From an uncultured Hyphomicrobiales bacterium (lineage in GTDB: Bacteria > Bacteroidota > Ignavibacteria > Kapaibacteriales > UBA2268): DNA of 64,000 nucleotides. The position numbers and the translations under genes are program-made. The notes beneath the pieces are model-generated. The model saw only the letters and a program-made list of their open reading frames with translations. It searched no databases and was not told the origin of the DNA. Below, piece by piece: positions 4,775 to 61,695 of the stretch. How positions within the stretch are numbered: position 1 is the stretch's first letter; each line of letters begins with the position of its first letter. Location of the stretch: positions 15,074 through 79,073 of the forward strand of contig CAYXFU010000016.1 in assembly GCA_964464375.1 (NCBI GenBank). Reading direction: 5' to 3'.

Positions 4775-5563
4775 TTACAATTTTATAAATTTCCCAACTT
4801 TATCCCCAATTCTCACAAAATACATCCCCGGAGGCAAACTGGAGATATCGATTCTTACTCCCTCCCTGCTCGCGGGGAGGGTTGGGGTGGGGTTAGGTGT
4901 GGCCTGTATTTCTCCCAGCACATTATATATACTCACGTCGCTTTGTAGGGGCGAACGGCCGTTCGCCCCTACGGATATTTCTATGAAATCTGTAGTTGGA
5001 TTAGGCGATACTTCAAAATCTTCTTTATTTTCTGGATTTTTTGATGGAACGTCCAAATTAGTATCCTCGTATCTTCTTAGATAATTGAAATTTGTAACAA
5101 GGCTTACATGTCCTATCTTATTTTCAACTGAATCTATGTTAGAATAATTCATCAGTCTTAGAAGCAAAACTCGTGGTAAAAATTTGGTGGTATCGGGTTC
5201 TTGAGGTAAATACTCCCTAAACCAAAATGTTCCATAAAGCGATTCAAAATGCTGAAATTCATTTTTTGTATTTAAATAGGTTGTAAGAATATCATGCCAT
5301 GTATATTCTATTATTGTGTCTTTTGGATAAATTCCAGATCTAGGAATAACATTATACTGAAATTCAACTCGAAAAATTTGTTTGGCATATAATTGTCCAA
5401 ATGTCGGTGACCAGTAACAGCTATCAACTTTGACCGAATCGGGATTTTGAAATCCCATCTTTTGATGCTTAAGTAGTTTTAGGCAACTGTCTGGTACTTG
5501 TGCATAATTTGCACCCAAACCAATAAAACTAAAATAAAGAAACATAAAGAATAATCTTTTCAT
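4775..5563 (-). CDS. Secreted protein with T9SS C-terminal sorting domain
   Basis: signal peptide MKRLFFMFLYFSFIGLGANYAQ; C-terminus SPNPTTDFIEISVGANGRSPLQSDVSIYNVLGEI..GMYFVRIGDKVGKFIKL. Confidence 0.6.
   Translation of the reverse strand: MKRLFFMFLYFSFIGLGANYAQVPDSCLKLLKHQKMGFQNPDSVKVDSCYWSPTFGQLYAKQIFRVEFQYNVIPRSGIYPKDTIIEYTWHDILTTYLNTKNEFQHFESLYGTFWFREYLPQEPDTTKFLPRVLLLRLMNYSNIDSVENKIGHVSLVTNFNYLRRYEDTNLDVPSKNPENKEDFEVSPNPTTDFIEISVGANGRSPLQSDVSIYNVLGEIQATPNPTPTLPASREGVRIDISSLPPGMYFVRIGDKVGKFIKL
4858..4881. repeat. In-frame GC hairpin ccctccctgctcgcggggaggg at a second variable site of the CTD (between NVLGEI and IDISSL)
   Basis: inverted repeat seen directly; the analogous site in the 53712 gene and the 52735 fragment carries a different hairpin, cctctcctttccaaggagggg. 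Confidence 0.55.
4945..4972. repeat. Perfect 28-nt palindrome gtaggggcgaacggccgttcgcccctac, in-frame in the CTD (encodes VGANGRSPL); related copies at 23153..23180 and 52927..52954
   Basis: perfect palindrome seen directly; recurs in orphan CTD copies. Confidence 0.75.
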
Positions 5564-11090: not shown

Positions 11091-11155
11091 GTCATTCCTG
11101 CACATGCAGGAATCTCGTAAAGTTAGAGAGATTCCGGGACAAGCCCGGAATGACA
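11091..11155. repeat. 65-nt hairpin repeat bounded by GTCATTC...GAATGAC (attcctgcacatgcaggaat + ttccgggacaagcccggaa)
   Basis: inverted termini and internal palindromes; member of a dispersed repeat superfamily. Confidence 0.6.
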
Positions 11156-15743: not shown

Positions 15744-15820
15744 GTCATTCCGAACGAAGTGAGGAATCTAGTCCGCATGAATACTAGATTCTCACGGTCG
15801 CTTCGCTCCCTCAGAATGAC
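15744..15820. repeat. 77-nt GTCATTC...GAATGAC hairpin repeat (family A, inverted orientation)
   Basis: gtcattccgaacgaagtgaggaatc...ctcacggtcgcttcgctccctcagaatgac. Confidence 0.65.
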
Positions 15821-19581: not shown

Positions 19582-19653
19582 GTTTAGTCCATAAATTTAT
19601 TAAAACACACTTTGTCATACTTTCGCGTGCGACAGTGTAAAAACTACGATTAT

Positions 19654-19767
19654 GTCATTCTGAGGGAGCGAAGCGACCGTGAGTTCCGGAGGACTGCGAA
19701 GCACATCCAGTCTGTTTTTTTACTGTAAAAGACAAATACATGGATTCTTCACTTCGTTCAGAATGAC
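19654..19767. repeat. 114-nt GTCATTC...GAATGAC hairpin repeat (family A)
   Basis: gtcattctgagggagcgaagcgaccgtgag...cacttcgttcagaatgac. Confidence 0.65.
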
Positions 19768-23008: not shown

Positions 23009-23190
23009 CTAAAGCTTCACAAACTTCCCGACTCTCTCCCCAATCCTCAAAAAATACATACCCGGAGCTAAGCCTGAAACATCGACTCGTTTGGGCAATT
23101 CATGAATTGCCCCTACAGACAATACAGTTTGACCATAAACATTGATTATTTTGTAAGGGCGAACGGCCGTTCGCCCCTACGAAAATTTGT
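23009..23190 (-). pseudogene. Decayed tandem copy of the CTD 3' end of the adjacent 23361..24602 gene (..VGANGRSPLQ, frameshift, NVYGQTVLSVGAIHELPKRVDVSGLAPGMYFLRIGERVGKFVKL*)
   Basis: two-frame translation; no start codon or gene body; contains palindrome 23153..23180. Confidence 0.6.
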
Positions 23191-23264
23191 TTAGATTTAT
23201 TTTCCGTTTTCTACACACAGGTCGCTACTCCGTAGCTGAATACAAAGTACATCTATTGAACGTT

Positions 23265-23360: not shown

Positions 23361-24602
23361 TTATAACTTCACGAATTTACCGACTCGATCCCCAATCCTC
23401 ACAAAATACATCCCCGGAGCTAAACCGGAAATGTCTATCCGTAGGGGTAATTCATGAATTTCCCCAACAGACAATACAGTTTGACCATAAACATTGAAGA
23501 TTTTGAATTCGCTTTGTTCGGACACGGCACGCCGTGTCCCTACGGATATTTCAATGAAATCGGATGCGGGATTGGGAGAAATAGAAAAATTAAAGTCGTT
23601 AATTGTTTCTTGAATACCAGTTATACTTTTTAAACTGATTAGACTTATATATTCAGAATTACTTATAACTAAATAATTGCTATCTGATGTAAACTTAGCA
23701 TATAAAGCTCTTAGACTTGTTGATGCGATAACAGTACCATCATTAATATCCCATATTAAAATAGGATCTAAACTCCAAAATACACCTGCAACAATAAATC
23801 TATTATTAGGTGATACAGATAATGAATATACTGCGCTACTTGTTTTGATATTTCTTAATAGAGACCTGCTCTTTGTATCACATACATTAACTCCACTTGT
23901 ATTGTTATATTTAAAATAATCGCAAACAAATTTAGAGCCGTCATTATTAAATGTAGCATAATATGATGAACCCTCGTCTTTAATTACGATGGAATCAGTT
24001 TGTAGATCGGTTAATGAGGCAGGAGTAAATCTTGTTGCTACGGCTAAATATCTATCATCTTTAGAAAATTCGATAAAATTGGGTTGTTGTCTTTCCATCC
24101 ATTCACCTATCAAGCATGGATATTGTTTATAGATTTCATCAGTTTGGAAATTTCTTATAATTACGCCTTTCTCCATTAAAGAATAAGCTAAATACTTATT
24201 ATCATGGGAGAGCGCAGCATAAAATGATCCACTAGATAAATTAACCTTTATTTCTTTAACTAAAACCCATGTTTTCGTATCCCAAACAGTTAATTTACCA
24301 TAGTTTCCATCATCAGAACCAGTAGCAATGAGAAATGAACCGTCATAAGAATATTTTACAGCAAATAATGTATAATCACAGACTTTTATTTGCTTGAATA
24401 TAGTTCCAGTTAAAAGATTAACAATTCTTATTGTTCCATCTTTTCCGCTTAATGAAATAAATTTATTGTCTGGTGAGACGTCGAAATAAGAAGAAATACC
24501 AAATTCATTTCTCCAAACCACACTAGAGTCAAGTGATATTTGGCTCTTTACATTTGCAATAAAGAAGATGAAGAAGAGTAGAATAAGAATGAATTGTTTC
24601 AT
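23361..24602 (-). CDS. WD40/beta-propeller-like secreted protein with T9SS CTD
   Basis: signal peptide; C-terminus SPNPASDFIEISVGTRRAVSEQ..GMYFVRIGDRVGKFVKL; in-frame palindrome ggacacggcacgccgtgtcc at 23516..23535. Confidence 0.6.
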   Translation of the reverse strand: MKQFILILLFFIFFIANVKSQISLDSSVVWRNEFGISSYFDVSPDNKFISLSGKDGTIRIVNLLTGTIFKQIKVCDYTLFAVKYSYDGSFLIATGSDDGNYGKLTVWDTKTWVLVKEIKVNLSSGSFYAALSHDNKYLAYSLMEKGVIIRNFQTDEIYKQYPCLIGEWMERQQPNFIEFSKDDRYLAVATRFTPASLTDLQTDSIVIKDEGSSYYATFNNDGSKFVCDYFKYNNTSGVNVCDTKSRSLLRNIKTSSAVYSLSVSPNNRFIVAGVFWSLDPILIWDINDGTVIASTSLRALYAKFTSDSNYLVISNSEYISLISLKSITGIQETINDFNFSISPNPASDFIEISVGTRRAVSEQSEFKIFNVYGQTVLSVGEIHELPLRIDISGLAPGMYFVRIGDRVGKFVKL

Positions 24603-26648: not shown

Positions 26649-26790
26649 GTCATTCAGAGCGCAGCGAAGAATCCATGTATTTGTATTTTCTTGTAAAAAC
26701 AGCCTGGATTCTTCAGTCGCAGTGCCCCTTCTGAAGGACAGCGATTCCGTCATTCTGAACGAAGTGAAGAATCCATGTATTCATACTATT
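26649..26790. repeat. Composite of two family-A hairpin units; first 64 nt repeated directly at 27189..27252
   Basis: gtcattcagagcgcagcgaagaatccatgtatttgtattttcttgtaaaaacagcctggattct. Confidence 0.65.
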
Positions 26791-26828: not shown

Positions 26829-27116
26829 CTAATACCACTCTTCACTTAAATCATTCCAATTAGGATTATTACCTTCAATCAATTTAATTTTTTTTACTCT
26901 TGAATATCCTTTAATATGCTTTTCTCTGACAATAGCAGATTCAATATTTCCACAGTCTTCAAGGAATACTAGTTGATGAACAGAATATTTGGAAGTAAAA
27001 CCTTCAAATAAATTATTTTTATGTTCATAGACTCTTTTTAATAAATTAGATGTTACACCTGTGTAAAGTGTTCCATTTTTTTGCGAAGCCATAATATATA
27101 CAAACCCGTTTTTCAT
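26829..27116 (-). CDS. GIY-YIG nuclease-superfamily small protein
   Basis: GFVYIMASQKNGTLYTGVTSNLLKRVYEH (GIY..YIG motif), 95 aa. Confidence 0.7.
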   Translation of the reverse strand: MKNGFVYIMASQKNGTLYTGVTSNLLKRVYEHKNNLFEGFTSKYSVHQLVFLEDCGNIESAIVREKHIKGYSRVKKIKLIEGNNPNWNDLSEEWY

Positions 27117-27140: not shown

Positions 27141-27280
27141 TACATGGATTCATCAGTCGCTTCGCTCCTTCTGAATGACAGCCATTTCGTCATTCAGAGC
27201 GCAGCGAAGAATCCATGTATTTGTATTTTCCTGTAAAACAGCCTGGATTCTCACTGTCGCTCCGCTCCTTCTGAATGACA
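27141..27280. repeat. Composite family-A hairpin repeats; contains the direct copy of the 26649 segment
   Basis: sequence identity to 26649..26712. Confidence 0.65.
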
Positions 27281-29100: not shown

Positions 29101-29140
29101 TACATAGATTCTTCAGTATCTACGCTACCTCTGAATGACA
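29101..29140. repeat. Partial family-A repeat arm (tacatagattcttcag...ctctgaatgac)
   Basis: matches the right arm of the GTCATTC..GAATGAC repeats. Confidence 0.5.
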
Positions 29141-35548: not shown

Positions 35549-35660
35549 TCTATTTCCTAGGGTTTGCACGCTCAGTTAATCAGATTCAGCCGCTTTGTGG
35601 CAGAAAAAAATATTAAGGCACTTGATTCTCCACTTCGTTAAGAATGACAGAAAAGGCAAC

Positions 35661-36209: not shown

Positions 36210-36364
36210 AAGCAATGAACAATTTAGATAAATCTGAAATAATCAACACACTTGACTCAATCACAAACCGGTGGCTGGAGTTATCAGAAAAGTTGTGAAG
36301 TAGCTGATTACCGTCATAAGCGATAAATACATGCCAAGCACCAAAACCAACTCCGGCAATCAGA

Positions 36365-36410
36365 GAGTGAATTAATACATTGCAATTTGCGAAATGGGAG
36401 GGAATCATGG
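36365..36410 (+). repeat. Second copy of the 40-nt AATTAATACATTGCAATTTGCGAAAT motif
   Basis: identity to 2083..2125. Confidence 0.5.
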
Positions 36411-36516
36411 CATGAATACTATATTGCCACATTTTCTACAAATCCTTATGGGATTATTATAAAACTTCCGAGAAAACCCAAACCCCTTTGAAAAAGGGGG
36501 CTAATACATTCTTTGT

Positions 36517-49445: not shown

Positions 49446-49536
49446 GTCATTCTGAGGGAGCGTAGCGACCGTGAGAATCCAGACTGTTTTACAAGAAAAT
49501 GCTAATACATGGATTCCTCACTTCGTTCGGAATGAC
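49446..49536. repeat. 91-nt GTCATTC...GAATGAC hairpin repeat (family A)
   Basis: gtcattctgagggagcgtagcgaccgtgag...cacttcgttcggaatgac. Confidence 0.65.
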
Positions 49537-52734: not shown

Positions 52735-52988
52735 TTACAGCTTTATAAACTTTCCGACTCTGTCCCCAGTCCTCACAAAATACATTCCAGGAGCCAAACC
52801 GGAGACATCGATTCTTGCTTTTTCCTCTCCTTTCCAAGGAGGGGTGTCACGATTGCGAAGCAACGGCGAAGCCCACTCCGGGGTGGTCTTGATTTCTCCA
52901 AGAACATTATATATCATCACCTCGCTTGTAAGGGCGAAGGACAGTTCGCCCCTACGGAAATTTCTATAAAATAAGAACTAGGATTGGG
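52735..52988 (-). pseudogene. Stand-alone frameshifted T9SS CTD cassette (..TPNPSSYFIEISVGANCPSPLQAR* then MMIYNVLGEIKTTPEWASPLL..GMYFVRTGDRVGKFIKL)
   Basis: two-frame translation gives a complete ~80-aa CTD with no gene body; ~150 nt near-identical to the 3' end of the 53712 gene; palindrome at 52927..52954. Confidence 0.6.
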
Positions 52989-54963: not shown

Positions 54964-57900
54964 TTATAACTTTATGAACTTTTGAACTGATGTTGCAATC
55001 CTAACAAAATAGACTCCTGACACTAATCCAGAGACATCGATCTTAACTCCCTCTACAAGAATGGAGAGGGTCGTGGTGAGGTTGATCTTTTTCCCATAAA
55101 TATTATAAATTTCAAAACTCAAACCTTCATCAATCTCGAATCCCTTCGCAAATACTATATTCAGCTCATCTATCACAGGATTTTCTGTAATTGTAAATTC
55201 AACAGGATTTATAAGTTGTATTCTGGCTATGTTAGGTTGACAGATGCCGGATACTTTGATGCTTCCATTTGTGATTTTGTTGATTATATCCTTGTCGCTC
55301 CATTCAAAATTTATTATTTCAATGGGTGTTATATCTCTATCCCCGATGAAGATCTGACCACAGATTTCACCGATTTTGGTTGGATTTTCTGTTAATTGAA
55401 TGTTGTCTCCGATCAGTTCTATTGTTCGTTTGCCGGATACTATTGTACCTTTGTTGGTTGTAGGGTTCATAACGGAAGCATCGAGTGTGATTACTGCTTT
55501 GTAGCTTACTTTGTCATCGTAAGGTTCGTTATCATCCTTCTTAGCCATTAGCGGAATGCAGAAATTCAGTTGTCCTATTTTTGCAGACATATCAGGTATC
55601 CAGACTGATGTGCTGATCTGTGTTTTGATGCTGTCTGACGCTGAGCCTTTGACTGCAATTAATAAAGACTGAACACACGGCTCGGTTATATCAATTATTA
55701 GTGAGTCCAGATATGATTTTGAATCAGTTGGCAGATAATCTATTTCGATATTTATTGATTCATTTTGAGCGAGTGTTTTTGGTGGCACAGGTGTTGGCTT
55801 AGCGGTGAAAGTATTTGCTTCAAGTCCCTTTATCTTTATGCTGAAGATTGTGACCTGTTGTGTATTTGTGTTCTTCAGTTCAATATTCTTTTTGCTTGTG
55901 GAGTTAACTTTCCTAGTACCGAAGTCAATATCAGTCAGCTGAATGACATCTGGTTTAAATTCAGTTATGGTGGTTGTTGCAGTTCCTTCGCATCCGTTAG
56001 TGTCGGTAACCGTCACGGAATAAATACCCGGATTTGATATAGAAATTGATTTTGTCGTTTCAGCTGTGTTCCAGAGATATGATTGAAAATCGTTTTGGAC
56101 AAGCAGGATGCTTGTCCTACCGGGACATAGGAATAAATCGCCTGATATTATCGGCTTTGGTTCTGCAACCTGAATTATATCAATTATTTCCGATGTTCCT
56201 TCGCATCCACCGTCATCTTTAACGTGAACTGAGTACTTTCCGGGTTTTGTGATCGTTATTGATTTTGTTGTTTCACCTGTGTTCCAGAGGTAAGATGTAT
56301 AGTTGTACTCTGTAGTTAGGTTCAAAGATCCATTTGGACAGAGAATTCCATTGTTACTAATTATCACAATTGGTTTCAGACTATCTACCAGTGTTACTTT
56401 CACTGTATCCGATATTGCTTTGCATCCGTTTATGTCAGTAACTTCTACATAGTAGTTTCCGGGTAGATTAACCGTTATGTTGTCTTCTGTGTTGCCTGTA
56501 CTCCAATTGTATGCGGTATATTTATCTTCTGTCGAGATGTTTAGTTTTGAGCCTGCACATAGTTCGGGGTTACGGCTCAGTTTAAGCTTTGGTGATATTT
56601 TGGGATAACTTTGAACGACTAAAGTGTCATATACCTCACAGCTACCGTTAATGCTTACCTTAACCCAATAAGTACCTGCTTTGTCTATGTCGATTTCTGA
56701 TGCTGTACTTCCATTTGACCACAAATATTTGTATGCATCATTTGGTGGCATTACTTTCAGTTTAGAGTTAATACCATCACATATCAAAGAATCACCCGAT
56801 ATATCAATGGTTATTGCTGGAAGCACATTTACCTCCACAGTGTCGCATCTGCTGCAGCCTGCATTATCAATTACGCAAAGAATATATTGGAATTTCCCGT
56901 TTGTATCCAAAGTTAGTTTGGGCGTTATAGAATTTGGATTGTCGAGTCCCTTAGACGGTGTCCATAAAATCGATTGAATTGGCTGAACACCACCGCTCAA
57001 CTGTCCTTTCAAATCGATTGTCGCATTGGTGCAGATATCAATATCAGGACCCGCAGAAATATTAATCTTTTGATGAATTCTAACAAAAAGCGAATCTGAT
57101 TTTGAACATCCGGCAGAATCAGTTACAGTTAATATATATTTCGTTGTCTTTTCCGGTGAAACGAGTGTGATTGCTGAATCAGGATCAACTATTCCTTCAG
57201 TTGGATTCCATTTATAGCGATATGGCGGAGTTCCTGATTTTGCTAAATTTCCTATAAATATCGATGAGCCGTAACAGATTGTTGTATCCTTGCCTGCCTC
57301 TATTTTAGGACCGATAACCTTTGCGACAAGGACTACAACCTTATTCCTGCCGCAACTATCGTAAACATCAATAAACTGAGTAAATGTTCCGGTATCTGCC
57401 GGAGCTGTAAATCTTACTTTTATTGCTTTAGTTTCATTAGCATTGAATTGTACAGAAGAAGGATTGCCCGATACGTAAGAAAACGGTGATTTTAAATCAT
57501 TAAAAGAAAATTTTGTACCAATAGTAGATTTGTTTTCTATATTAAAAATTGTGTCTTTTACAGAATTAGGGCATACAATTCCAAAATCAAGAGTATTAAA
57601 TCTCAATCCGCTTAACTTAAAAGATATACTGTCTTTAACTGCATTTAATGCAATACTAAATGGACTTTTAGGGGAATTATTTATAAGGTTTAAATTTGCA
57701 GATTTATTCCCCGATATTGATGACTTAAAACTAATTACAAACTTAGCAGAATCACCATACGGTATGATAATTGGCAATGCTGGTGAAATCAGAGAAAAGT
57801 CTGTAAAGTTAATTCCAGATGGATTTGAGTTTGATATTATTAGATCACAACCACCGGTATTCTTTACCCAAATAGAATCAAGCTCTGAATTTTCACAAAC

Positions 57901-60093
57901 TAAATTTTTAAATCTAAGATTTTTATTGGAAGAAATTCCAGGAGTAAGATATATTTGACTGAATTTTGTTACAAAACCATCATGTTGACCTTTTAGGGAA
58001 GTTTGAAATGCACCTGCTGTAACTGGATAATCATGGGAAAGGGTTGAGCCAGTGATATAAATATCATTCTTATTATCAATACAAATAGATGTTCCATACT
58101 CTCTATATGAACCAGAAATAAATGTTGAATAACTGAATTTTGAATCATTAAAATTCAATTTAAATAAAAAACAATCAGAGTAATAAGTCAATGGAGTAGT
58201 TTGATAAGCACATTGAATTATTGGGAAATCGTCAGAGATTGTATATCCTGTGATATATGGATTTTTCTCTGAATCCAATGCAATTGACAACCCATAATCA
58301 TCTTTTGAGCCACCTACAAAAGAAGAATATAAAATACTTGTGCCGGTATTATTGAATTTGGTGATAAAAGCTTCATTCATTTTCTTTTGTGTGGGTTGAA
58401 ATGAACCAGGTGTAGTTGGAAAATTAGGAGAAGCGGTACTTCCGGTGACAAAGGCATTTCCATTATTATCAACAACTACACCTGAAATTTGATCTGTACC
58501 TGAGCCACCAAGATAAGATGAATACAAAGCATCTGTGCCAGTTTGATTTAATTTAGTAATGAATCCGTCATGAGACCCACCGGCATAATTTATCTGAAAA
58601 GCTCCGGTTGTAGTAGGATAATCAGTAGTAGAAGTGTAGCCAGCAATATAAGCACATCCAAACGAATCAATTGTTAAGCTCAGCACAGATAGCCAATTTA
58701 ACAAAGATACCCCTAATTCTCCACCTAGAAATGTTGAATATATTAAACTTGTGCCTGTTGAATTACATTTAACTACGAACAAATCTGAAGAATTTCTTAA
58801 TGTTGTACGATAAGCACCGGAAGTAGTTGGAAAATCACTTGATAATGTTCCTCCTGTTATATATGAATTACCTGCAATATCTACAGATATGGAATTTCCC
58901 CAATCATCATTCAAACCGCCTAAAAAGGTTGAAAAAAGTAATGTAGAACCAGTAGAATTAAGCTTAGTAATAAATGCTTCAGTACCATTCCTTGTTTGGC
59001 GTAAAGCACCATTTGTTAAGGGGTAATTATCCGACCAGGTCGTACCAGTCATGTAAACATTTAAATTAGAATCGATTGCTAAACCTGCTCCCTCTTCTAC
59101 ATCATTACCACCGATAAATGTTGAAAATATAGGATATGTACCATTTACATTCATTTTTGTCACAAAATAATCAGCTATTACTCCTTTTGATGTATCAATA
59201 TTCGTTTGATATGCTCCTACTGTTGTTGGAAAATCTTTTGAATCGCTCTCTCCGCAAATATAAGAATTTGAATTTCTATCCACTACAATCCCATGTGGAA
59301 AATCTGGTCCAGATCCACCTAAATATGTAGAATACACCATTGGGTCAATTATCAAAGCTAAATCATGATTATAATCATCGATTTTGAAAGTGGCGGTTCC
59401 ATCGTAATTTAAAATAAAGCGGCAATCAACTTTGGTGCCTTCAGCAAGACTAAGCAATGCTTTGGGTTGATAAGCATAGATTTTATTATTGAGAACATTT
59501 CCTATGCTTGTACCAATAACCAATTCACCATTTTCATTGATTGCAAGGTTGTTCTGTCCTTCAAATTTCATCTTAATTTGAGATATATCTGCACCGGGAC
59601 TGACAATATAATCATATCTCAAACCAGCTAAAGTTTGTCCTTCTGTAGTTTTTGTATCAAAATAATATCTAATATCTATACCCTGATAAGCATCCTTTAC
59701 GATTACTTCTTTATACAGAGGCACAAATGAAGCCCATTTTGTAGAATCATTACCAATAAAGTAGTTATAATAAGTCTCCAGTTTTTCTTTGGTTAGATTA
59801 GTGCAGCTCTCATTTAAACCATCATATTTTAACCCAACAACATGACCTTTCAAAAACTTGTCTTCTATCTTGTTAAAGTCATAAACAACGCCGCTTTTGG
59901 TTATCCAGGCATTTATTCCATTCATCTTAGCAAGGAATTGTACTTCAGGATTCCACTGTCCTTTGTTTTCAATGAAGGAATTTGAATTGTTGATCTTTGA
60001 CAGGGTAGTCTCATCCATGCCGGTAAGCACAAGAGATGGATAGATGCAAATTAACAGGCAAATAAACAGATTTCTCATTTTCCGCCTCAGCAA
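54964..60093 (-). CDS. Giant (1709 aa) secreted adhesin-like protein: SBBP beta-propeller repeats + multiple Ig/PKD-like domains + T9SS CTD
   Basis: repeated ..GGSGxDxxxGIAVD..NVYVTGxTxSxDFP.. units; Cys-containing Ig-like repeats; C-terminus LVSGVYFVRIATSVQKFIKL. Confidence 0.7.
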   Translation of the reverse strand: MLRRKMRNLFICLLICIYPSLVLTGMDETTLSKINNSNSFIENKGQWNPEVQFLAKMNGINAWITKSGVVYDFNKIEDKFLKGHVVGLKYDGLNESCTNLTKEKLETYYNYFIGNDSTKWASFVPLYKEVIVKDAYQGIDIRYYFDTKTTEGQTLAGLRYDYIVSPGADISQIKMKFEGQNNLAINENGELVIGTSIGNVLNNKIYAYQPKALLSLAEGTKVDCRFILNYDGTATFKIDDYNHDLALIIDPMVYSTYLGGSGPDFPHGIVVDRNSNSYICGESDSKDFPTTVGAYQTNIDTSKGVIADYFVTKMNVNGTYPIFSTFIGGNDVEEGAGLAIDSNLNVYMTGTTWSDNYPLTNGALRQTRNGTEAFITKLNSTGSTLLFSTFLGGLNDDWGNSISVDIAGNSYITGGTLSSDFPTTSGAYRTTLRNSSDLFVVKCNSTGTSLIYSTFLGGELGVSLLNWLSVLSLTIDSFGCAYIAGYTSTTDYPTTTGAFQINYAGGSHDGFITKLNQTGTDALYSSYLGGSGTDQISGVVVDNNGNAFVTGSTASPNFPTTPGSFQPTQKKMNEAFITKFNNTGTSILYSSFVGGSKDDYGLSIALDSEKNPYITGYTISDDFPIIQCAYQTTPLTYYSDCFLFKLNFNDSKFSYSTFISGSYREYGTSICIDNKNDIYITGSTLSHDYPVTAGAFQTSLKGQHDGFVTKFSQIYLTPGISSNKNLRFKNLVCENSELDSIWVKNTGGCDLIISNSNPSGINFTDFSLISPALPIIIPYGDSAKFVISFKSSISGNKSANLNLINNSPKSPFSIALNAVKDSISFKLSGLRFNTLDFGIVCPNSVKDTIFNIENKSTIGTKFSFNDLKSPFSYVSGNPSSVQFNANETKAIKVRFTAPADTGTFTQFIDVYDSCGRNKVVVLVAKVIGPKIEAGKDTTICYGSSIFIGNLAKSGTPPYRYKWNPTEGIVDPDSAITLVSPEKTTKYILTVTDSAGCSKSDSLFVRIHQKINISAGPDIDICTNATIDLKGQLSGGVQPIQSILWTPSKGLDNPNSITPKLTLDTNGKFQYILCVIDNAGCSRCDTVEVNVLPAITIDISGDSLICDGINSKLKVMPPNDAYKYLWSNGSTASEIDIDKAGTYWVKVSINGSCEVYDTLVVQSYPKISPKLKLSRNPELCAGSKLNISTEDKYTAYNWSTGNTEDNITVNLPGNYYVEVTDINGCKAISDTVKVTLVDSLKPIVIISNNGILCPNGSLNLTTEYNYTSYLWNTGETTKSITITKPGKYSVHVKDDGGCEGTSEIIDIIQVAEPKPIISGDLFLCPGRTSILLVQNDFQSYLWNTAETTKSISISNPGIYSVTVTDTNGCEGTATTTITEFKPDVIQLTDIDFGTRKVNSTSKKNIELKNTNTQQVTIFSIKIKGLEANTFTAKPTPVPPKTLAQNESINIEIDYLPTDSKSYLDSLIIDITEPCVQSLLIAVKGSASDSIKTQISTSVWIPDMSAKIGQLNFCIPLMAKKDDNEPYDDKVSYKAVITLDASVMNPTTNKGTIVSGKRTIELIGDNIQLTENPTKIGEICGQIFIGDRDITPIEIINFEWSDKDIINKITNGSIKVSGICQPNIARIQLINPVEFTITENPVIDELNIVFAKGFEIDEGLSFEIYNIYGKKINLTTTLSILVEGVKIDVSGLVSGVYFVRIATSVQKFIKL

Positions 60094-60174
60094 GATAATA
60101 GAATTGTATTATTCAAATTTAAAATTATTATTATTATAAAGCAAGTTTATTTAGTGAGGAGTGAATAGTTTGGA

Positions 60175-60492
60175 ATACATAGATTCCTCACCTACGGTTC
60201 GGAATGACGAAGGGGCTGTCATTCAGAAGGAGCGTAGCGACTGAAGGAATCCAGGCTGTTTTCTTCGAGAAAAATACAAATACATGGATTCCTCATTTCA
60301 TTCGGAATGACGGAATGGCTGTCATTCTGCGGGAGCATAGTGACTGAAGGAATCCAGGCTGTTTTTTTACAGAGGGAATACAAAATACATGGATTCCTCA
60401 CTATGTTCGGAATGGCAAAAAGGCTGTCATTCAGAAGGAGCGTAGCGACTGTAAGTTCCGAAGGACTGCGAAGCGCATCCAGGCTGTTTTTT
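60175..60492. repeat. Tandem array of three ~104-nt units of the GTCATTC...GAATGAC hairpin repeat
   Basis: gtcattc begins at 60218, 60321 and 60425; each unit carries gtcattc[at]g[ac]..gagcgtagcgactg..ggaatccaggctgtttt and tacatggattcctca..ttcggaatgac arms. Confidence 0.7.
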
Positions 60493-60544
60493 GAGCAGCA
60501 CTGTTCCTCTCTTTTTCTGCTGAATATCATAGGCACTGAAATTC

Positions 60545-60571
60545 AAAAAAAAAGGCGTTGAATTCAACGCC
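60545..60571 (-). terminator. Hairpin ggcgttgaattcaacgcc with T9 on the minus strand; terminator for mrp
   Basis: seen directly. Confidence 0.7.
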
Positions 60572-60600
60572 TAATAAAATTATAATATCTTAACAAGATT

Positions 60601-61695
60601 CTATATCGATATTTCTACTTTTGGATTCTCCCAGATTGTGAGGTTGTGGCGTCGAACCTGTGCTACAACTTTTGATGCGATCTCTTTGATTACTCCAGCC
60701 TGATAACCATTCTCATCTTTAATGACTATGGGAGTCCCTCCGTCATTAGCTTCGCGCATTTCCATATTTAACGGAATTTCACCTAGGAAGGAAATTTCGC
60801 TCTCATTTGCAACGTTCCTACCTCCACCTTGTCCGAAGATGTAGTATTTTTTGTCTGTCATGTCGGGTGGAACGAAATAAGCCATATTTTCGACTATTCC
60901 AAGAATGTCAACATTAACCTTGCGGAACATAGCTATCGAGCGACGAACATCGGAGACGGAAATCTCCTGAGGAGTTGTAACAATCACAGCTCCAGTCATT
61001 GGTATCTTCTGCGTCATAGTCAGCTGAATGTCTCCGGTTCCCGGAGGAAGATCAAAAATAAGGAAGTCAAGCTCTCCCCATTCAAGCTGTTCGAATAGCA
61101 GGGAGAAATATCCTGCAAGCATCGGTCCGCGAATTATAGCGGCATCGTCTCTGTTGAGTAGAAAGCCCATAGACGCAACTTTGATGCCATGAGATTCGAG
61201 TGGGAAAGCAACTGAATTGCCATGTCCGTCATCAATAGCTTCGAAAGATCCGCCGACAAGACCGAACATGGTTGGCTGGCTTGGACCGTAAATGTCGCCA
61301 TCGAGAATCCCGACACTGGCACCATTAAGCGATAATGCCGCTGCCAAATTTGATGCAACAGCAGATTTACCGACACCACCTTTACCTGAAGCCACTGCAA
61401 CGATGTTCTTAACTTTTGGTAGAATCTTACGACCGCCATTGTCTTGTTCCTTTTCTGTGCATACGATTTCAGTTTCAACACCCGGTGCTAATTTACCAAT
61501 GGCATCGGCACTCATTTTACAGACAGTTTCTGCAATCCAATGAACAGGACCAATCATCTCAAGGTTTACTTTAATAATACCATCTTTAATTATCACCTGT
61601 TTAACAGCTTCTAGTTCGGAAAAGGTTTTGCCAAGATCCGGATCAATCAAGGAATTGAGAGATTGCTTAATGTCGTTTTCTAAGTTATTACTCAT
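60601..61695 (-). CDS. apbC: Fe-S cluster carrier ATPase, Mrp/ApbC/NBP35 family
   Basis: VASGKGGVGKSAVASNLAAAL P-loop; N-terminal DUF59-like domain. Confidence 0.85.
   Translation of the reverse strand: MSNNLENDIKQSLNSLIDPDLGKTFSELEAVKQVIIKDGIIKVNLEMIGPVHWIAETVCKMSADAIGKLAPGVETEIVCTEKEQDNGGRKILPKVKNIVAVASGKGGVGKSAVASNLAAALSLNGASVGILDGDIYGPSQPTMFGLVGGSFEAIDDGHGNSVAFPLESHGIKVASMGFLLNRDDAAIIRGPMLAGYFSLLFEQLEWGELDFLIFDLPPGTGDIQLTMTQKIPMTGAVIVTTPQEISVSDVRRSIAMFRKVNVDILGIVENMAYFVPPDMTDKKYYIFGQGGGRNVANESEISFLGEIPLNMEMREANDGGTPIVIKDENGYQAGVIKEIASKVVAQVRRHNLTIWENPKVEISI

Follow-up and report, generated by a model that had tools for sequence, protein, structure and literature searches.

What is the tandem array of hairpin repeats at positions 60175-60492 of a 64,000-nt stretch of contig CAYXFU010000016.1 (the whole stretch is called the window below), lying between an mrp gene and a large adhesin-like gene? 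Could it encode small RNAs, act as a stack of terminators or record a recent amplification, as a preliminary description of this DNA had proposed? We set out the case that the array probably consists of six Ssn-related motifs (SRM), that is, NTS-like, CGTC-tagged repetitive extragenic palindromes (REPs), drawn from the same population that brackets an ssnA-type gene at 26832-27116, and that these modules would act as DNA and be cut as single-stranded DNA (ssDNA) by the Ssn nuclease.

The Neisseria motif NTS (CGTCATTCCCGCGMAVGCGGGAATCYRG) and the related SRM are associated with ssnA across phyla, typically in the layout NTS-ssnA-NTS, and motifs lie near 71% of ssnA homologues (Chenal et al., Nat Commun 2025, PMC11893778). 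The ssnA product is a 94-aa single-domain GIY-YIG protein (cd10448) with catalytic residues Y6, Y17 and E64. It binds the NTS hairpin only as ssDNA and not as RNA, and its cut falls a few nucleotides upstream of the motif, on that strand only; binding depends critically on the C that follows the palindrome, and cutting on the three bases that precede this C (PMC11893778). Cutting of ssDNA alone, 5' of the motif, is known for four proteobacterial homologues, and in Neisseria, SsnA makes NTS-bearing DNA about five-fold less efficient in transformation; the same authors pointed out the IS-like architecture and the analogy to RAYT/REP/BIME systems (PMC11893778).

The array is built from six hairpin modules

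Tandem Repeats Finder calls one array at 60174-60451 (period 105, 2.6 copies, 80% matches, score 377) and no other long-period array in the window, which bears out the head-to-tail repeat of ~104 nt that had been described; its characterisation as not CRISPR-like also holds. The motif GTCATTC starts at 60218, 60321 and 60426, the first two as previously given and the third one base away from the 60425 reported before, and the string ccaggctgtttttt, also correctly given before, is found at 60479-60492.

The ~104-nt unit is itself composite. Two hairpin modules of 25-34 nt stand in opposite orientation within it, and the plus strand reads reverse complement of S (S'), 9-nt linker, forward L, 35-37-nt linker. 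The S module (GTCATTCCGAACGAAGTGAGGAATC) has 25-27 nt and the L module (GTCATTCAGAAGGAGCGTAGCGACTGAAGGAATC) has 34 nt. The 9-nt linker is GAAGGGGCT, GGAATGGCT or AAAAAGGCT in the array, with GAAATGGCT and GGAATCGCT as counterparts at other junctions, and the long linker runs from CAGGCTGTTTT to AATACATG. Since the building block is a pair of inverted modules and not the 104-nt unit, the array holds six modules, three per strand: three S modules on the minus strand and three L modules on the plus strand (Table 1). Stem pairing, tag and tail are intact in five of the six. The third L module is a long variant, 88% identical to a copy at 19653-19720.

Does each unit fold into a long imperfect hairpin, as had been claimed? 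Units 1 and 2 do so beyond their shuffles (z of -1.2 and -3.3 as plus-strand RNA, -2.9 and -4.9 as DNA), but unit 3 folds no better than shuffled sequence (z of -0.3 and -0.1), because its second arm is the longer variant and the unit is truncated. In units 1 and 2 both registers, S'-9 nt-L and L-linker-S', form longer imperfect DNA hairpins (z of -2.9 to -4.9). Pairs of array units are 79-84% identical, compared with 73-81% between array units and copies 33 kb away. The units are no closer to each other than to these distant copies, and we therefore see no recent local amplification.

The hairpin is maintained across distant phyla

Each copy of the module has five parts: a tag (C/T)GTC, a stem ATTCC...GGAAT, two G.A/A.G mismatches in its interior, a short upper stem closed by a GNA triloop (C-GAA-G or C-GTA-G), and a C followed by the tail CA(G/T). 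In the six array modules and the 12 other exact copies, GTC of the tag is preceded mostly by C in S and by T in L modules, and one array copy has GCC instead; the stem ATTCC/GGAAT is present in every module. S modules end in GGAATC-CAT and L modules in GGAATC-CAG, the C standing directly after the palindrome. The S module can be written CGTC-ATTCCGAA-CGAAG-TGAGGAAT-CCA, with eight stem positions, two of which are G.A, and a 5-nt loop. Some copies in the window retain the tag, the outer stem and the C while their upper stems are perfect and of different sequence (ATTCCTGCA...TGCAGGAAT, ATTCCGGG...CCCGGAAT). A C-GNA-G triloop combined with tandem G.A pairs is typical of stable DNA hairpins, compare the d(GCGAAGC)-type mini-hairpins.

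How far does this module extend beyond the window? A scan with GTCATTCNGANCGAAGNGANGAATC over one genome per species, in which ~0.3 matches were expected by chance (21 fixed bases, 1.2e12 positions), yielded at least 120 loci. The listed loci lie in metagenome-assembled genomes (MAGs) of Ignavibacteria, Bacteroidia, Chlorobiales, Acidobacteriota, Chloroflexota, Nitrospirota, Planctomycetota, Armatimonadota, Verrucomicrobiota, Bdellovibrionota, Gamma- and Deltaproteobacteria, Clostridia, and Saccharibacteria and Gracilibacteria of the candidate phyla radiation (CPR); the usual form among them is a doublet in which 17-50 variable bases separate a module from its inverted partner.

Pairing was assessed at positions that the search pattern leaves free. 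Two such position pairs are Watson-Crick in 136 and 135 of the 144 matches listed, against ~80 expected. The same loci also provide 63 more 25-mers, unselected by the pattern, and in these each stem pair is Watson-Crick in 89-98%, with TT/AA, TC/GA, CC/GG and TG/CA as alternative pairs. Over 57 distinct 25-mers from many phyla, 94% of the cells are paired, compared with 15-52% in slid controls, and 63 cells have changed on both sides, compared with 17.9 in shuffles, a value that none of 500 shuffles reached. Such double changes occur at six of the seven stem pairs; no variation is seen in the tag, the G.A pairs or the terminal TC. Compensatory change across phyla indicates that the hairpin is under selection; the covariation check that had been recommended for the copies thus comes out in favour of a maintained structure.

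The 25-nt S module is near-identical in MAGs of very distant phyla, CPR bacteria and Firmicutes included. This sameness suggests either horizontal spread or very strong constraint.

The same repeats surround an ssnA-like gene

Within the window, the pattern GTCATTC-N10-28-GAATC has 18 matches, compared with 0.26 expected from shuffles. They fall into nine clusters, namely the array and eight further sites, and so confirm that the hairpin repeat is dispersed, as was previously noted, in a family with the look of a mobile element. Long open reading frames (ORFs) cover 82.5% of the window; the modules lie outside them, with one exception at the 5' end of a doubtful ORF with a TTG start. The L-linker-S' doublet is conserved, linker included, at five loci (alignment A1). 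The genes beside the clusters are a mixed set: histidine kinase, methyltransferase, TonB-dependent receptor, PKD protein, adenylate kinase, ribosomal protein L20 and sigma factor. Modules differ from one another by insertions and deletions, and a pattern of fixed spacing is unsuited to them. A literature search with the repeat strings returned unrelated primer matches only.

Between two of these clusters lies a gene for a single-domain GIY-YIG protein of 95 aa. On the minus strand, the order is L - 32 nt - S' - 9 nt - L - [gene] - S' - 9 nt - L - 32 nt - S', with gaps between gene and modules of about 26-30 nt upstream and about 58 nt downstream. The locus is an alternating array of the same type as that at 60175-60492, with the gene in the place of a linker. 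The sequence that follows the stop codon (GGCTGTCTTTTT...ATGAATACATG) appears to resemble the ends of ordinary linkers (GGCTGTTTTT...AAATACATG).

Is the association of this gene with the repeats peculiar to one genome? Among the matches listed, a small GIY-YIG ORF occurs at four of the at least 120 S-module loci, and all four, from different phyla, show the bracketing module(+)...gene...module(-). A profile made from these four proteins retrieves the ORF of the window with an E-value of 1e-35. Homologues of ~95 aa number at least 3,481 in many phyla; the closest named ones among the matches listed, from Candidatus Kapabacteria, are 75% identical. Two Kapabacteria MAGs carry the homologue between similar modules, again as module(+)...gene...module(-), and the Kapabacteria MAG L136 has tandem doublets with a related linker (AAGTTTT..AAAATACATG). 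Y7, Y18, R28, H32 and E65 are invariant in the cross-phylum alignment, and Y7, Y18 and E65 of the window protein correspond to the published Y6, Y17 and E64 of SsnA.

Two further observations concern the protein family. Module-associated GIY-YIG proteins of ~95 aa are 60-75% identical between phyla, and in some Ssn homologues (P0003, P0020) the last residues, DSSLRSE, come from translation that runs on into a module.

How the modules would act

Five features expected of SRM are present in the window: an HGTC tag, a hairpin of 20-50 nt with the stem ends of NTS, a C after the palindrome with a CYRG-like tail, an ssnA-like gene flanked on both sides, and enrichment above chance in the 64 kb. The S module likewise has the tag, the stem of 8-9 positions, the 4-5-nt loop, the CCA tail, the extragenic location and the inverted dimers of CGTC-tagged REPs.

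If the array is made of such motifs, its modules would function as DNA and not as RNA. Whenever a strand becomes single-stranded, during replication, recombination or DNA uptake, a module would fold into a hairpin with the stem ATTCC/GGAAT, two tandem G.A mismatches and a C-GNA-G triloop, to which the unpaired (C/T)GTC tag and the C after the stem would give polarity. The Ssn nuclease would be expected to bind this hairpin and to place a nick in the single strand, a few bases to the 5' side of the tag. What is said here on the specificity of the nuclease, on where it cuts and on the biological effect is taken, by analogy, from published experiments in Neisseria and Wolbachia. On the same footing, the cleavage zone would be the 9-nt head-to-head linkers, on both strands: S and L modules face each other head to head across these linkers, and the predicted cuts on the two strands therefore fall within the same 9 nt and would bracket each L-linker-S' doublet. 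The likely consequence would be local cutting of ssDNA that bears the array, and the outcome could be modulated recombination or transformation near the neighbouring genes, propagation of the repeat, or both. Incoming single strands could also recombine less around the array as a result of such cutting, a role of the kind proposed for Neisseria. Whether domesticated or selfish, the role may be either, and the data fit both.

Several points weigh against assigning the array to the Ssn system. The published SRM string, HGTCWYN(0-2)YYVSBRHN(0-5)WNVSBRGN(0-2)RNCYNB, matches no module and has 0 matches in the window, while the NTS consensus, as positive control, is matched and shuffles give a mean of 0.06; the string misses the modules because the interior of their G.A-interrupted stem differs, though the ends fit. 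The ssnA-like gene lies 33 kb from the array, and for this reason the identity of the repeats is all that links the two. Size, single domain, key residues and ~95-aa homologues give indirect support to the 95-aa ORF as a putative Ssn-type nuclease, N. meningitidis SsnA and cd10448 having been compared by description only. A search of PDB sequences yielded one weak match, a UPF0213 GIY-YIG protein (E 0.003), and no solved Ssn structure among the matches. Finally, the clusters in the window show no specific adjacency to surface-protein genes.

Genomic context and comparison of strains

The flanking genes are those previously named. On the transcribed strand, the array lies downstream of mrp, which encodes an Mrp/NBP35-type ATPase (60601-61695, minus strand; Pfam ParA 1.4e-90), and upstream of the adhesin-like gene (54964-60078/60093, minus strand, ATG at 60078). 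The latter encodes a protein of 1,704-1,709 aa, secreted by the type IX secretion system (T9SS), with DUF7948, beta-propeller repeats, Ig-like domains and a T9SS sorting tail. A strong intrinsic terminator, distinct from the array, follows mrp (Table 1), and the array occupies the gap from this terminator to the AT-rich region before the adhesin gene. In every contig, JGI gene calling places an 84-aa ORF across the array (60307-60561, plus strand), without a Pfam match; it is probably a spurious gene, because its translation is visibly composed of the repeat.

Comparison of array length among strains had been suggested as a test of active amplification. The array is identical in all seven metagenome contigs that carry it, which leaves amplification unsupported, though the test is a weak one since the locus itself shows no variation. 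Five of the seven contigs are 100% identical to the window over the whole overlap. The other two, the variant strains L003 and L004, are identical to it over mrp, the array and the initial 4.2 kb of the adhesin gene. Beyond that point (window 55126-55907) both have 84-92 mismatches in ~700 nt (~12% of sites), homology is lost at the 3' end of the adhesin gene, and different genes follow downstream. This looks like a mosaic recombination breakpoint inside a surface-protein gene in co-occurring strains. The contig L001 ends exactly at 55907.

In the relative L138, whose Mrp is 93% identical, the mrp terminator is kept, but synteny is lost: the neighbours differ and the adhesin gene is not adjacent. 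At the same spot (L138 1270-1700) stand two tandem units of ~237 nt that belong to a different palindrome family (GCCCCGTAGGGGC, AATCCCCTACGGGGAT), with no SRM array. More distant Mrp loci in a metagenome scan (56-62% identity) have no modules nearby. From these comparisons we conclude that palindromic repeats use the site behind the mrp terminator as a landing place and that the SRM array was acquired within the lineage.

Other repeats were seen in the window. Perfect palindromes of GTAG type (GTAGGGGCGAAC..GTTCGCCCCTAC) form a second family at 4943-5005, 23151-23213, 23514-23576 and 52926-52988, and adjoin a repeated cassette of ~100-250 nt coding for a T9SS C-terminal sorting tail (2142, 2848, 4761, 22995, 23347, 52721, 53698); in L004 one such palindrome stands in frame inside the T9SS tail. 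A 59-nt direct repeat of 86% identity occurs in two intergenic regions (2058-2116 and 36343-36401), and a ATCCTTATGGGAT hairpin lies at 36442, ~40 nt downstream of the second copy.

Table 1. Modules, linkers and associated features of the repeat family in the window
Feature	Position	Strand	Basis or remark
S module 1 GTCATTCCGAACCGTAGGTGAGGAATC	60182-60208	-	tag C at 60209 (minus strand); hairpin ATTCC/GGAAT + GA/GA + ACC-GTA-GGT
9-nt head-to-head linker GAAGGGGCT between two tags	60209-60217		sequence reading
L module 1 GTCATTCAGAAGGAGCGTAGCGACTGAAGGAATC, tag T, tail CAG	60218-60251	+	pattern match
35-nt tail-to-tail linker CAGGCTGTTTTCTTCGAGAAAAATACAAATACATG	60252-60286		kept at other loci (alignment A1)
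S module 2 GTCATTCCGAATGAAATGAGGAATC	60287-60311	-	pattern match
9-nt head-to-head linker GGAATGGCT	60312-60320		sequence reading
L module 2 GTCATTCTGCGGGAGCATAGTGACTGAAGGAATC	60321-60354	+	pattern match
37-nt tail-to-tail linker with T7 run	60355-60391		sequence reading, alignment
S module 3 GCCATTCCGAACATAGTGAGGAATC, degenerate tag	60392-60416	-	module listing
9-nt head-to-head linker AAAAAGGCT	60417-60425		sequence reading
Long L variant, 54 nt, two extra GAA-triloop mini-hairpins	60426-60479	+	repeat family D15
First 13 nt of tail linker CAGGCTGTTTTTT; array stops without partner S module	60480-60492		sequence, alignment
mrp intrinsic terminator, 8-bp stem and T-run	60545-60572 (stem from 60572 to 60553)	-	terminator scan; kept in the 93% relative L138
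Tail-to-tail doublet, perfect-stem NTS-like modules GTCATTCCTGCACATGCAGGAATC, GTCATTCCGGGCTTGTCCCGGAATC	11091-11154
S/L doublet upstream of TonB-dependent receptor gene	15744-15820
Doublet: long L variant (19653/19654-19720), linker, S' (exact match 19743-19767)	19654-19767
S' - 9 nt - L - 32-nt linker - S' array directly downstream of ssnA-like gene	26649-26773		read on minus strand
ssnA-like gene, 95-aa single-domain GIY-YIG	26832-27116	-	Pfam GIY-YIG 1.8e-13; profile search
L - 32-nt linker - S' - 9 nt - L array directly upstream of ssnA-like gene	27147-27279		read on minus strand
Solo L module	29107-29139	-
Solo S module	35624-35648	-
L - linker - S' doublet	49446-49536

Mobility, decay, RNA and tyrosine transposases

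Could the Ssn gene and its repeats form a mobile element that is still active? The unit module(+)-ssnA-module(-) would then be a transposon-like element mobilised by its own GIY-YIG nuclease, the ~95-nt L-linker-S' doublets would be gene-less derivatives resembling miniature inverted-repeat transposable elements, and arrays would grow by insertion beside existing copies, with single-strand cuts on both strands in the 9-nt linkers defining the excised unit. We regard this as doubtful. If true, it would amount to a GIY-YIG-driven DNA transposition system and would explain a near-identical 25-mer in dozens of phyla; the near-invariance of the S module and the gene in linker position both bear on whether the elements are mobile.

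Alternatively, the array may be what is left of an old selfish element, decaying and without function, in which case the Ssn gene and repeats persist only as a parasite and the locus is inactive today. Divergence between the units is ~20%, the tag of one S module has the degenerate form GCC, one L module is aberrantly long, the array ends in half a unit, and a different repeat family occupies the same spot in the relative with the 93%-identical Mrp. Decay is nevertheless unlikely in view of the five of six modules with preserved stem pairing, tag and tail, the ssnA-like ORF, which is intact with all catalytic residues present, and the covariation, which points to selection on the hairpin across the family.

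A product or activity at the RNA level, be it small RNAs, a terminator stack or RNA-stabilising hairpins, is very improbable. It is true that units 1 and 2 form good RNA folds (z down to -3.3), that plus-strand T-runs of 4-7 stand behind every L module, and that REP-type hairpins elsewhere in bacteria can stabilise mRNA. But the array matches no Rfam family (none at gathering level in the whole window, and only chance-level matches, E 0.19-0.75, in 60050-60620), and a scan of the region finds no promoter-like site within it. A terminator would have a GC-rich stem with a T-run within 0-2 nt on the transcribed strand, whereas the T-runs here are separated from the foot of the hairpin by 6 nt (AGGCTG) and are antisense to both flanking genes; a scan of 59900-60750 calls the mrp terminator only and passes no unit of the array. 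With its own strong terminator, mrp ends upstream of the array, which comes after that terminator and before the start of the adhesin gene. Every locus has modules in both orientations, as fits an element that acts at the DNA level, and the conserved C-GNA-G triloop and tandem G.A are traits of stable DNA hairpins. The characterised Neisseria nuclease of this class binds ssDNA and not RNA (PMC11893778). The small RNAs and the terminator stack of the preliminary description are for these reasons not sustained.

The remaining proposal, classical REP/REPIN sequences spread by a RAYT-type Y1 (IS200-like) transposase as in E. coli BIME clusters, can draw on the alternating palindromic units with two linker types and on a 152-aa Y1_Tnp gene (L001 700-1350) ~6.4 kb past the right end of the window, flanked by inverted hairpins, but it has hardly any probability left: these GTAATCCCGTAGGGATG hairpins are a different family without dispersed copies in the window, the Y1 protein is scored as IS200 with 71 bits and, at 34 bits, falls short of the 80-bit cut-off for REP_Tyr_transpos, a Y1 homologue accompanies none of the at least 120 S-module loci among the matches listed and a GIY-YIG gene four, the tag is CGTC/TGTC and not GTAG, and CGTC REPs are reported never to flank tyrosine transposase genes (PMC3733652). 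We dropped this origin because the hairpins flanking the Y1 gene are unrelated to the modules and the gene is absent from the S-module loci listed. The Y1 gene itself has two GTAATCCCGTAGGGATG copies on each side, inverted, a RAYT-like arrangement.

Comparison with known systems

No site-specific endonuclease restricted to ssDNA had been described before the Ssn nucleases, which are under development as ssDNA tools. The window offers a clean, complete example from an uncultured bacterium of the FCB group, with an intact nuclease gene and its repeats. New are the motif variant, with its G.A-interrupted stem, GNA triloop and two module classes, and a lineage outside the published description. 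The published search pattern does not pick up this variant, and the family is therefore probably larger than the published censuses suggest.

With NTS and SRM, the modules share the HGTC tag, the stem ATTCC...GGAAT, the C right after the palindrome and a C-C-A-G/T tail; they too are extragenic and multi-copy, and a ~95-aa single-domain GIY-YIG gene with catalytic Tyr/Tyr/Glu has repeats on both sides. Unlike NTS, which has an 8-bp GC-rich stem and a 4-nt loop, they have two G.A mismatches and a GNA triloop, and S and L classes pair as heterodimers with conserved linkers. The host here is an uncultured, Kapabacteria/Ignavibacteria-like bacterium and not a proteobacterium.

CGTC-tagged REPs carry a CGTC/TGTC tag, stems opening with A-T pairs and a CCA tail, occur mostly as inverted dimers, and are reported from Proteobacteria, Chlorobi, Bacteroidetes, Spirochaetes and Thermotogae; they include dRS3 of Neisseria and RPE-4/6 of Rickettsia, and no dedicated transposase was found for them (Di Nocera, De Gregorio & Rocco 2013, PMC3733652). 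The modules agree with them in the tag, the A-T then T-A start of the stem, the CCA tail, the inverted dimers, the intergenic location and the lack of a tyrosine transposase, and the phyla reported for these REPs include Chlorobi and Bacteroidetes. The described families differ in having uninterrupted 8-9-bp stems and 4-5-nt loops, and the L module of the window has 34 nt with a nested mini-hairpin; clusters of CGTC-tagged REPs are reported to be rare outside Neisseria and Wolbachia.

NIMEs of Neisseria are runs of dRS3 hairpins with spacers of 19-214 bp beside surface-protein genes (PMC1797815). The array resembles them as an intergenic array of short ATTCC(C)...(G)GGAAT hairpins with spacers of tens of bases, here beside a large surface-protein gene. 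The strict dRS3 consensus ATTCCC-N8-GGGAAT is absent, the modules being ATTCC-N11-24-GGAAT; the spacers are of two conserved types (9 nt and ~35 nt), whereas NIMEs have more than 100 RS families, and NIMEs were thought to be specific to Neisseria.

To E. coli BIME-2 and Pseudomonas REPINs with their RAYT the likeness is one of layout: palindromic units alternate in orientation and recur as doublets, the nuclease is encoded by a single-copy gene with copies of its own repeat on either side, and recognition of the hairpins takes place on ssDNA. The nuclease is however of GIY-YIG and not HUH/Y1 type, the tag is CGTC and not GTAG, and the S module is near-identical over many phyla while REP sequences are lineage-specific. 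We place the array in the CGTC-REP/SRM class as a variant member, with a function that would be the one established by experiment in proteobacteria; in itself it is an ordinary member of a known and recently explained class of repeats.

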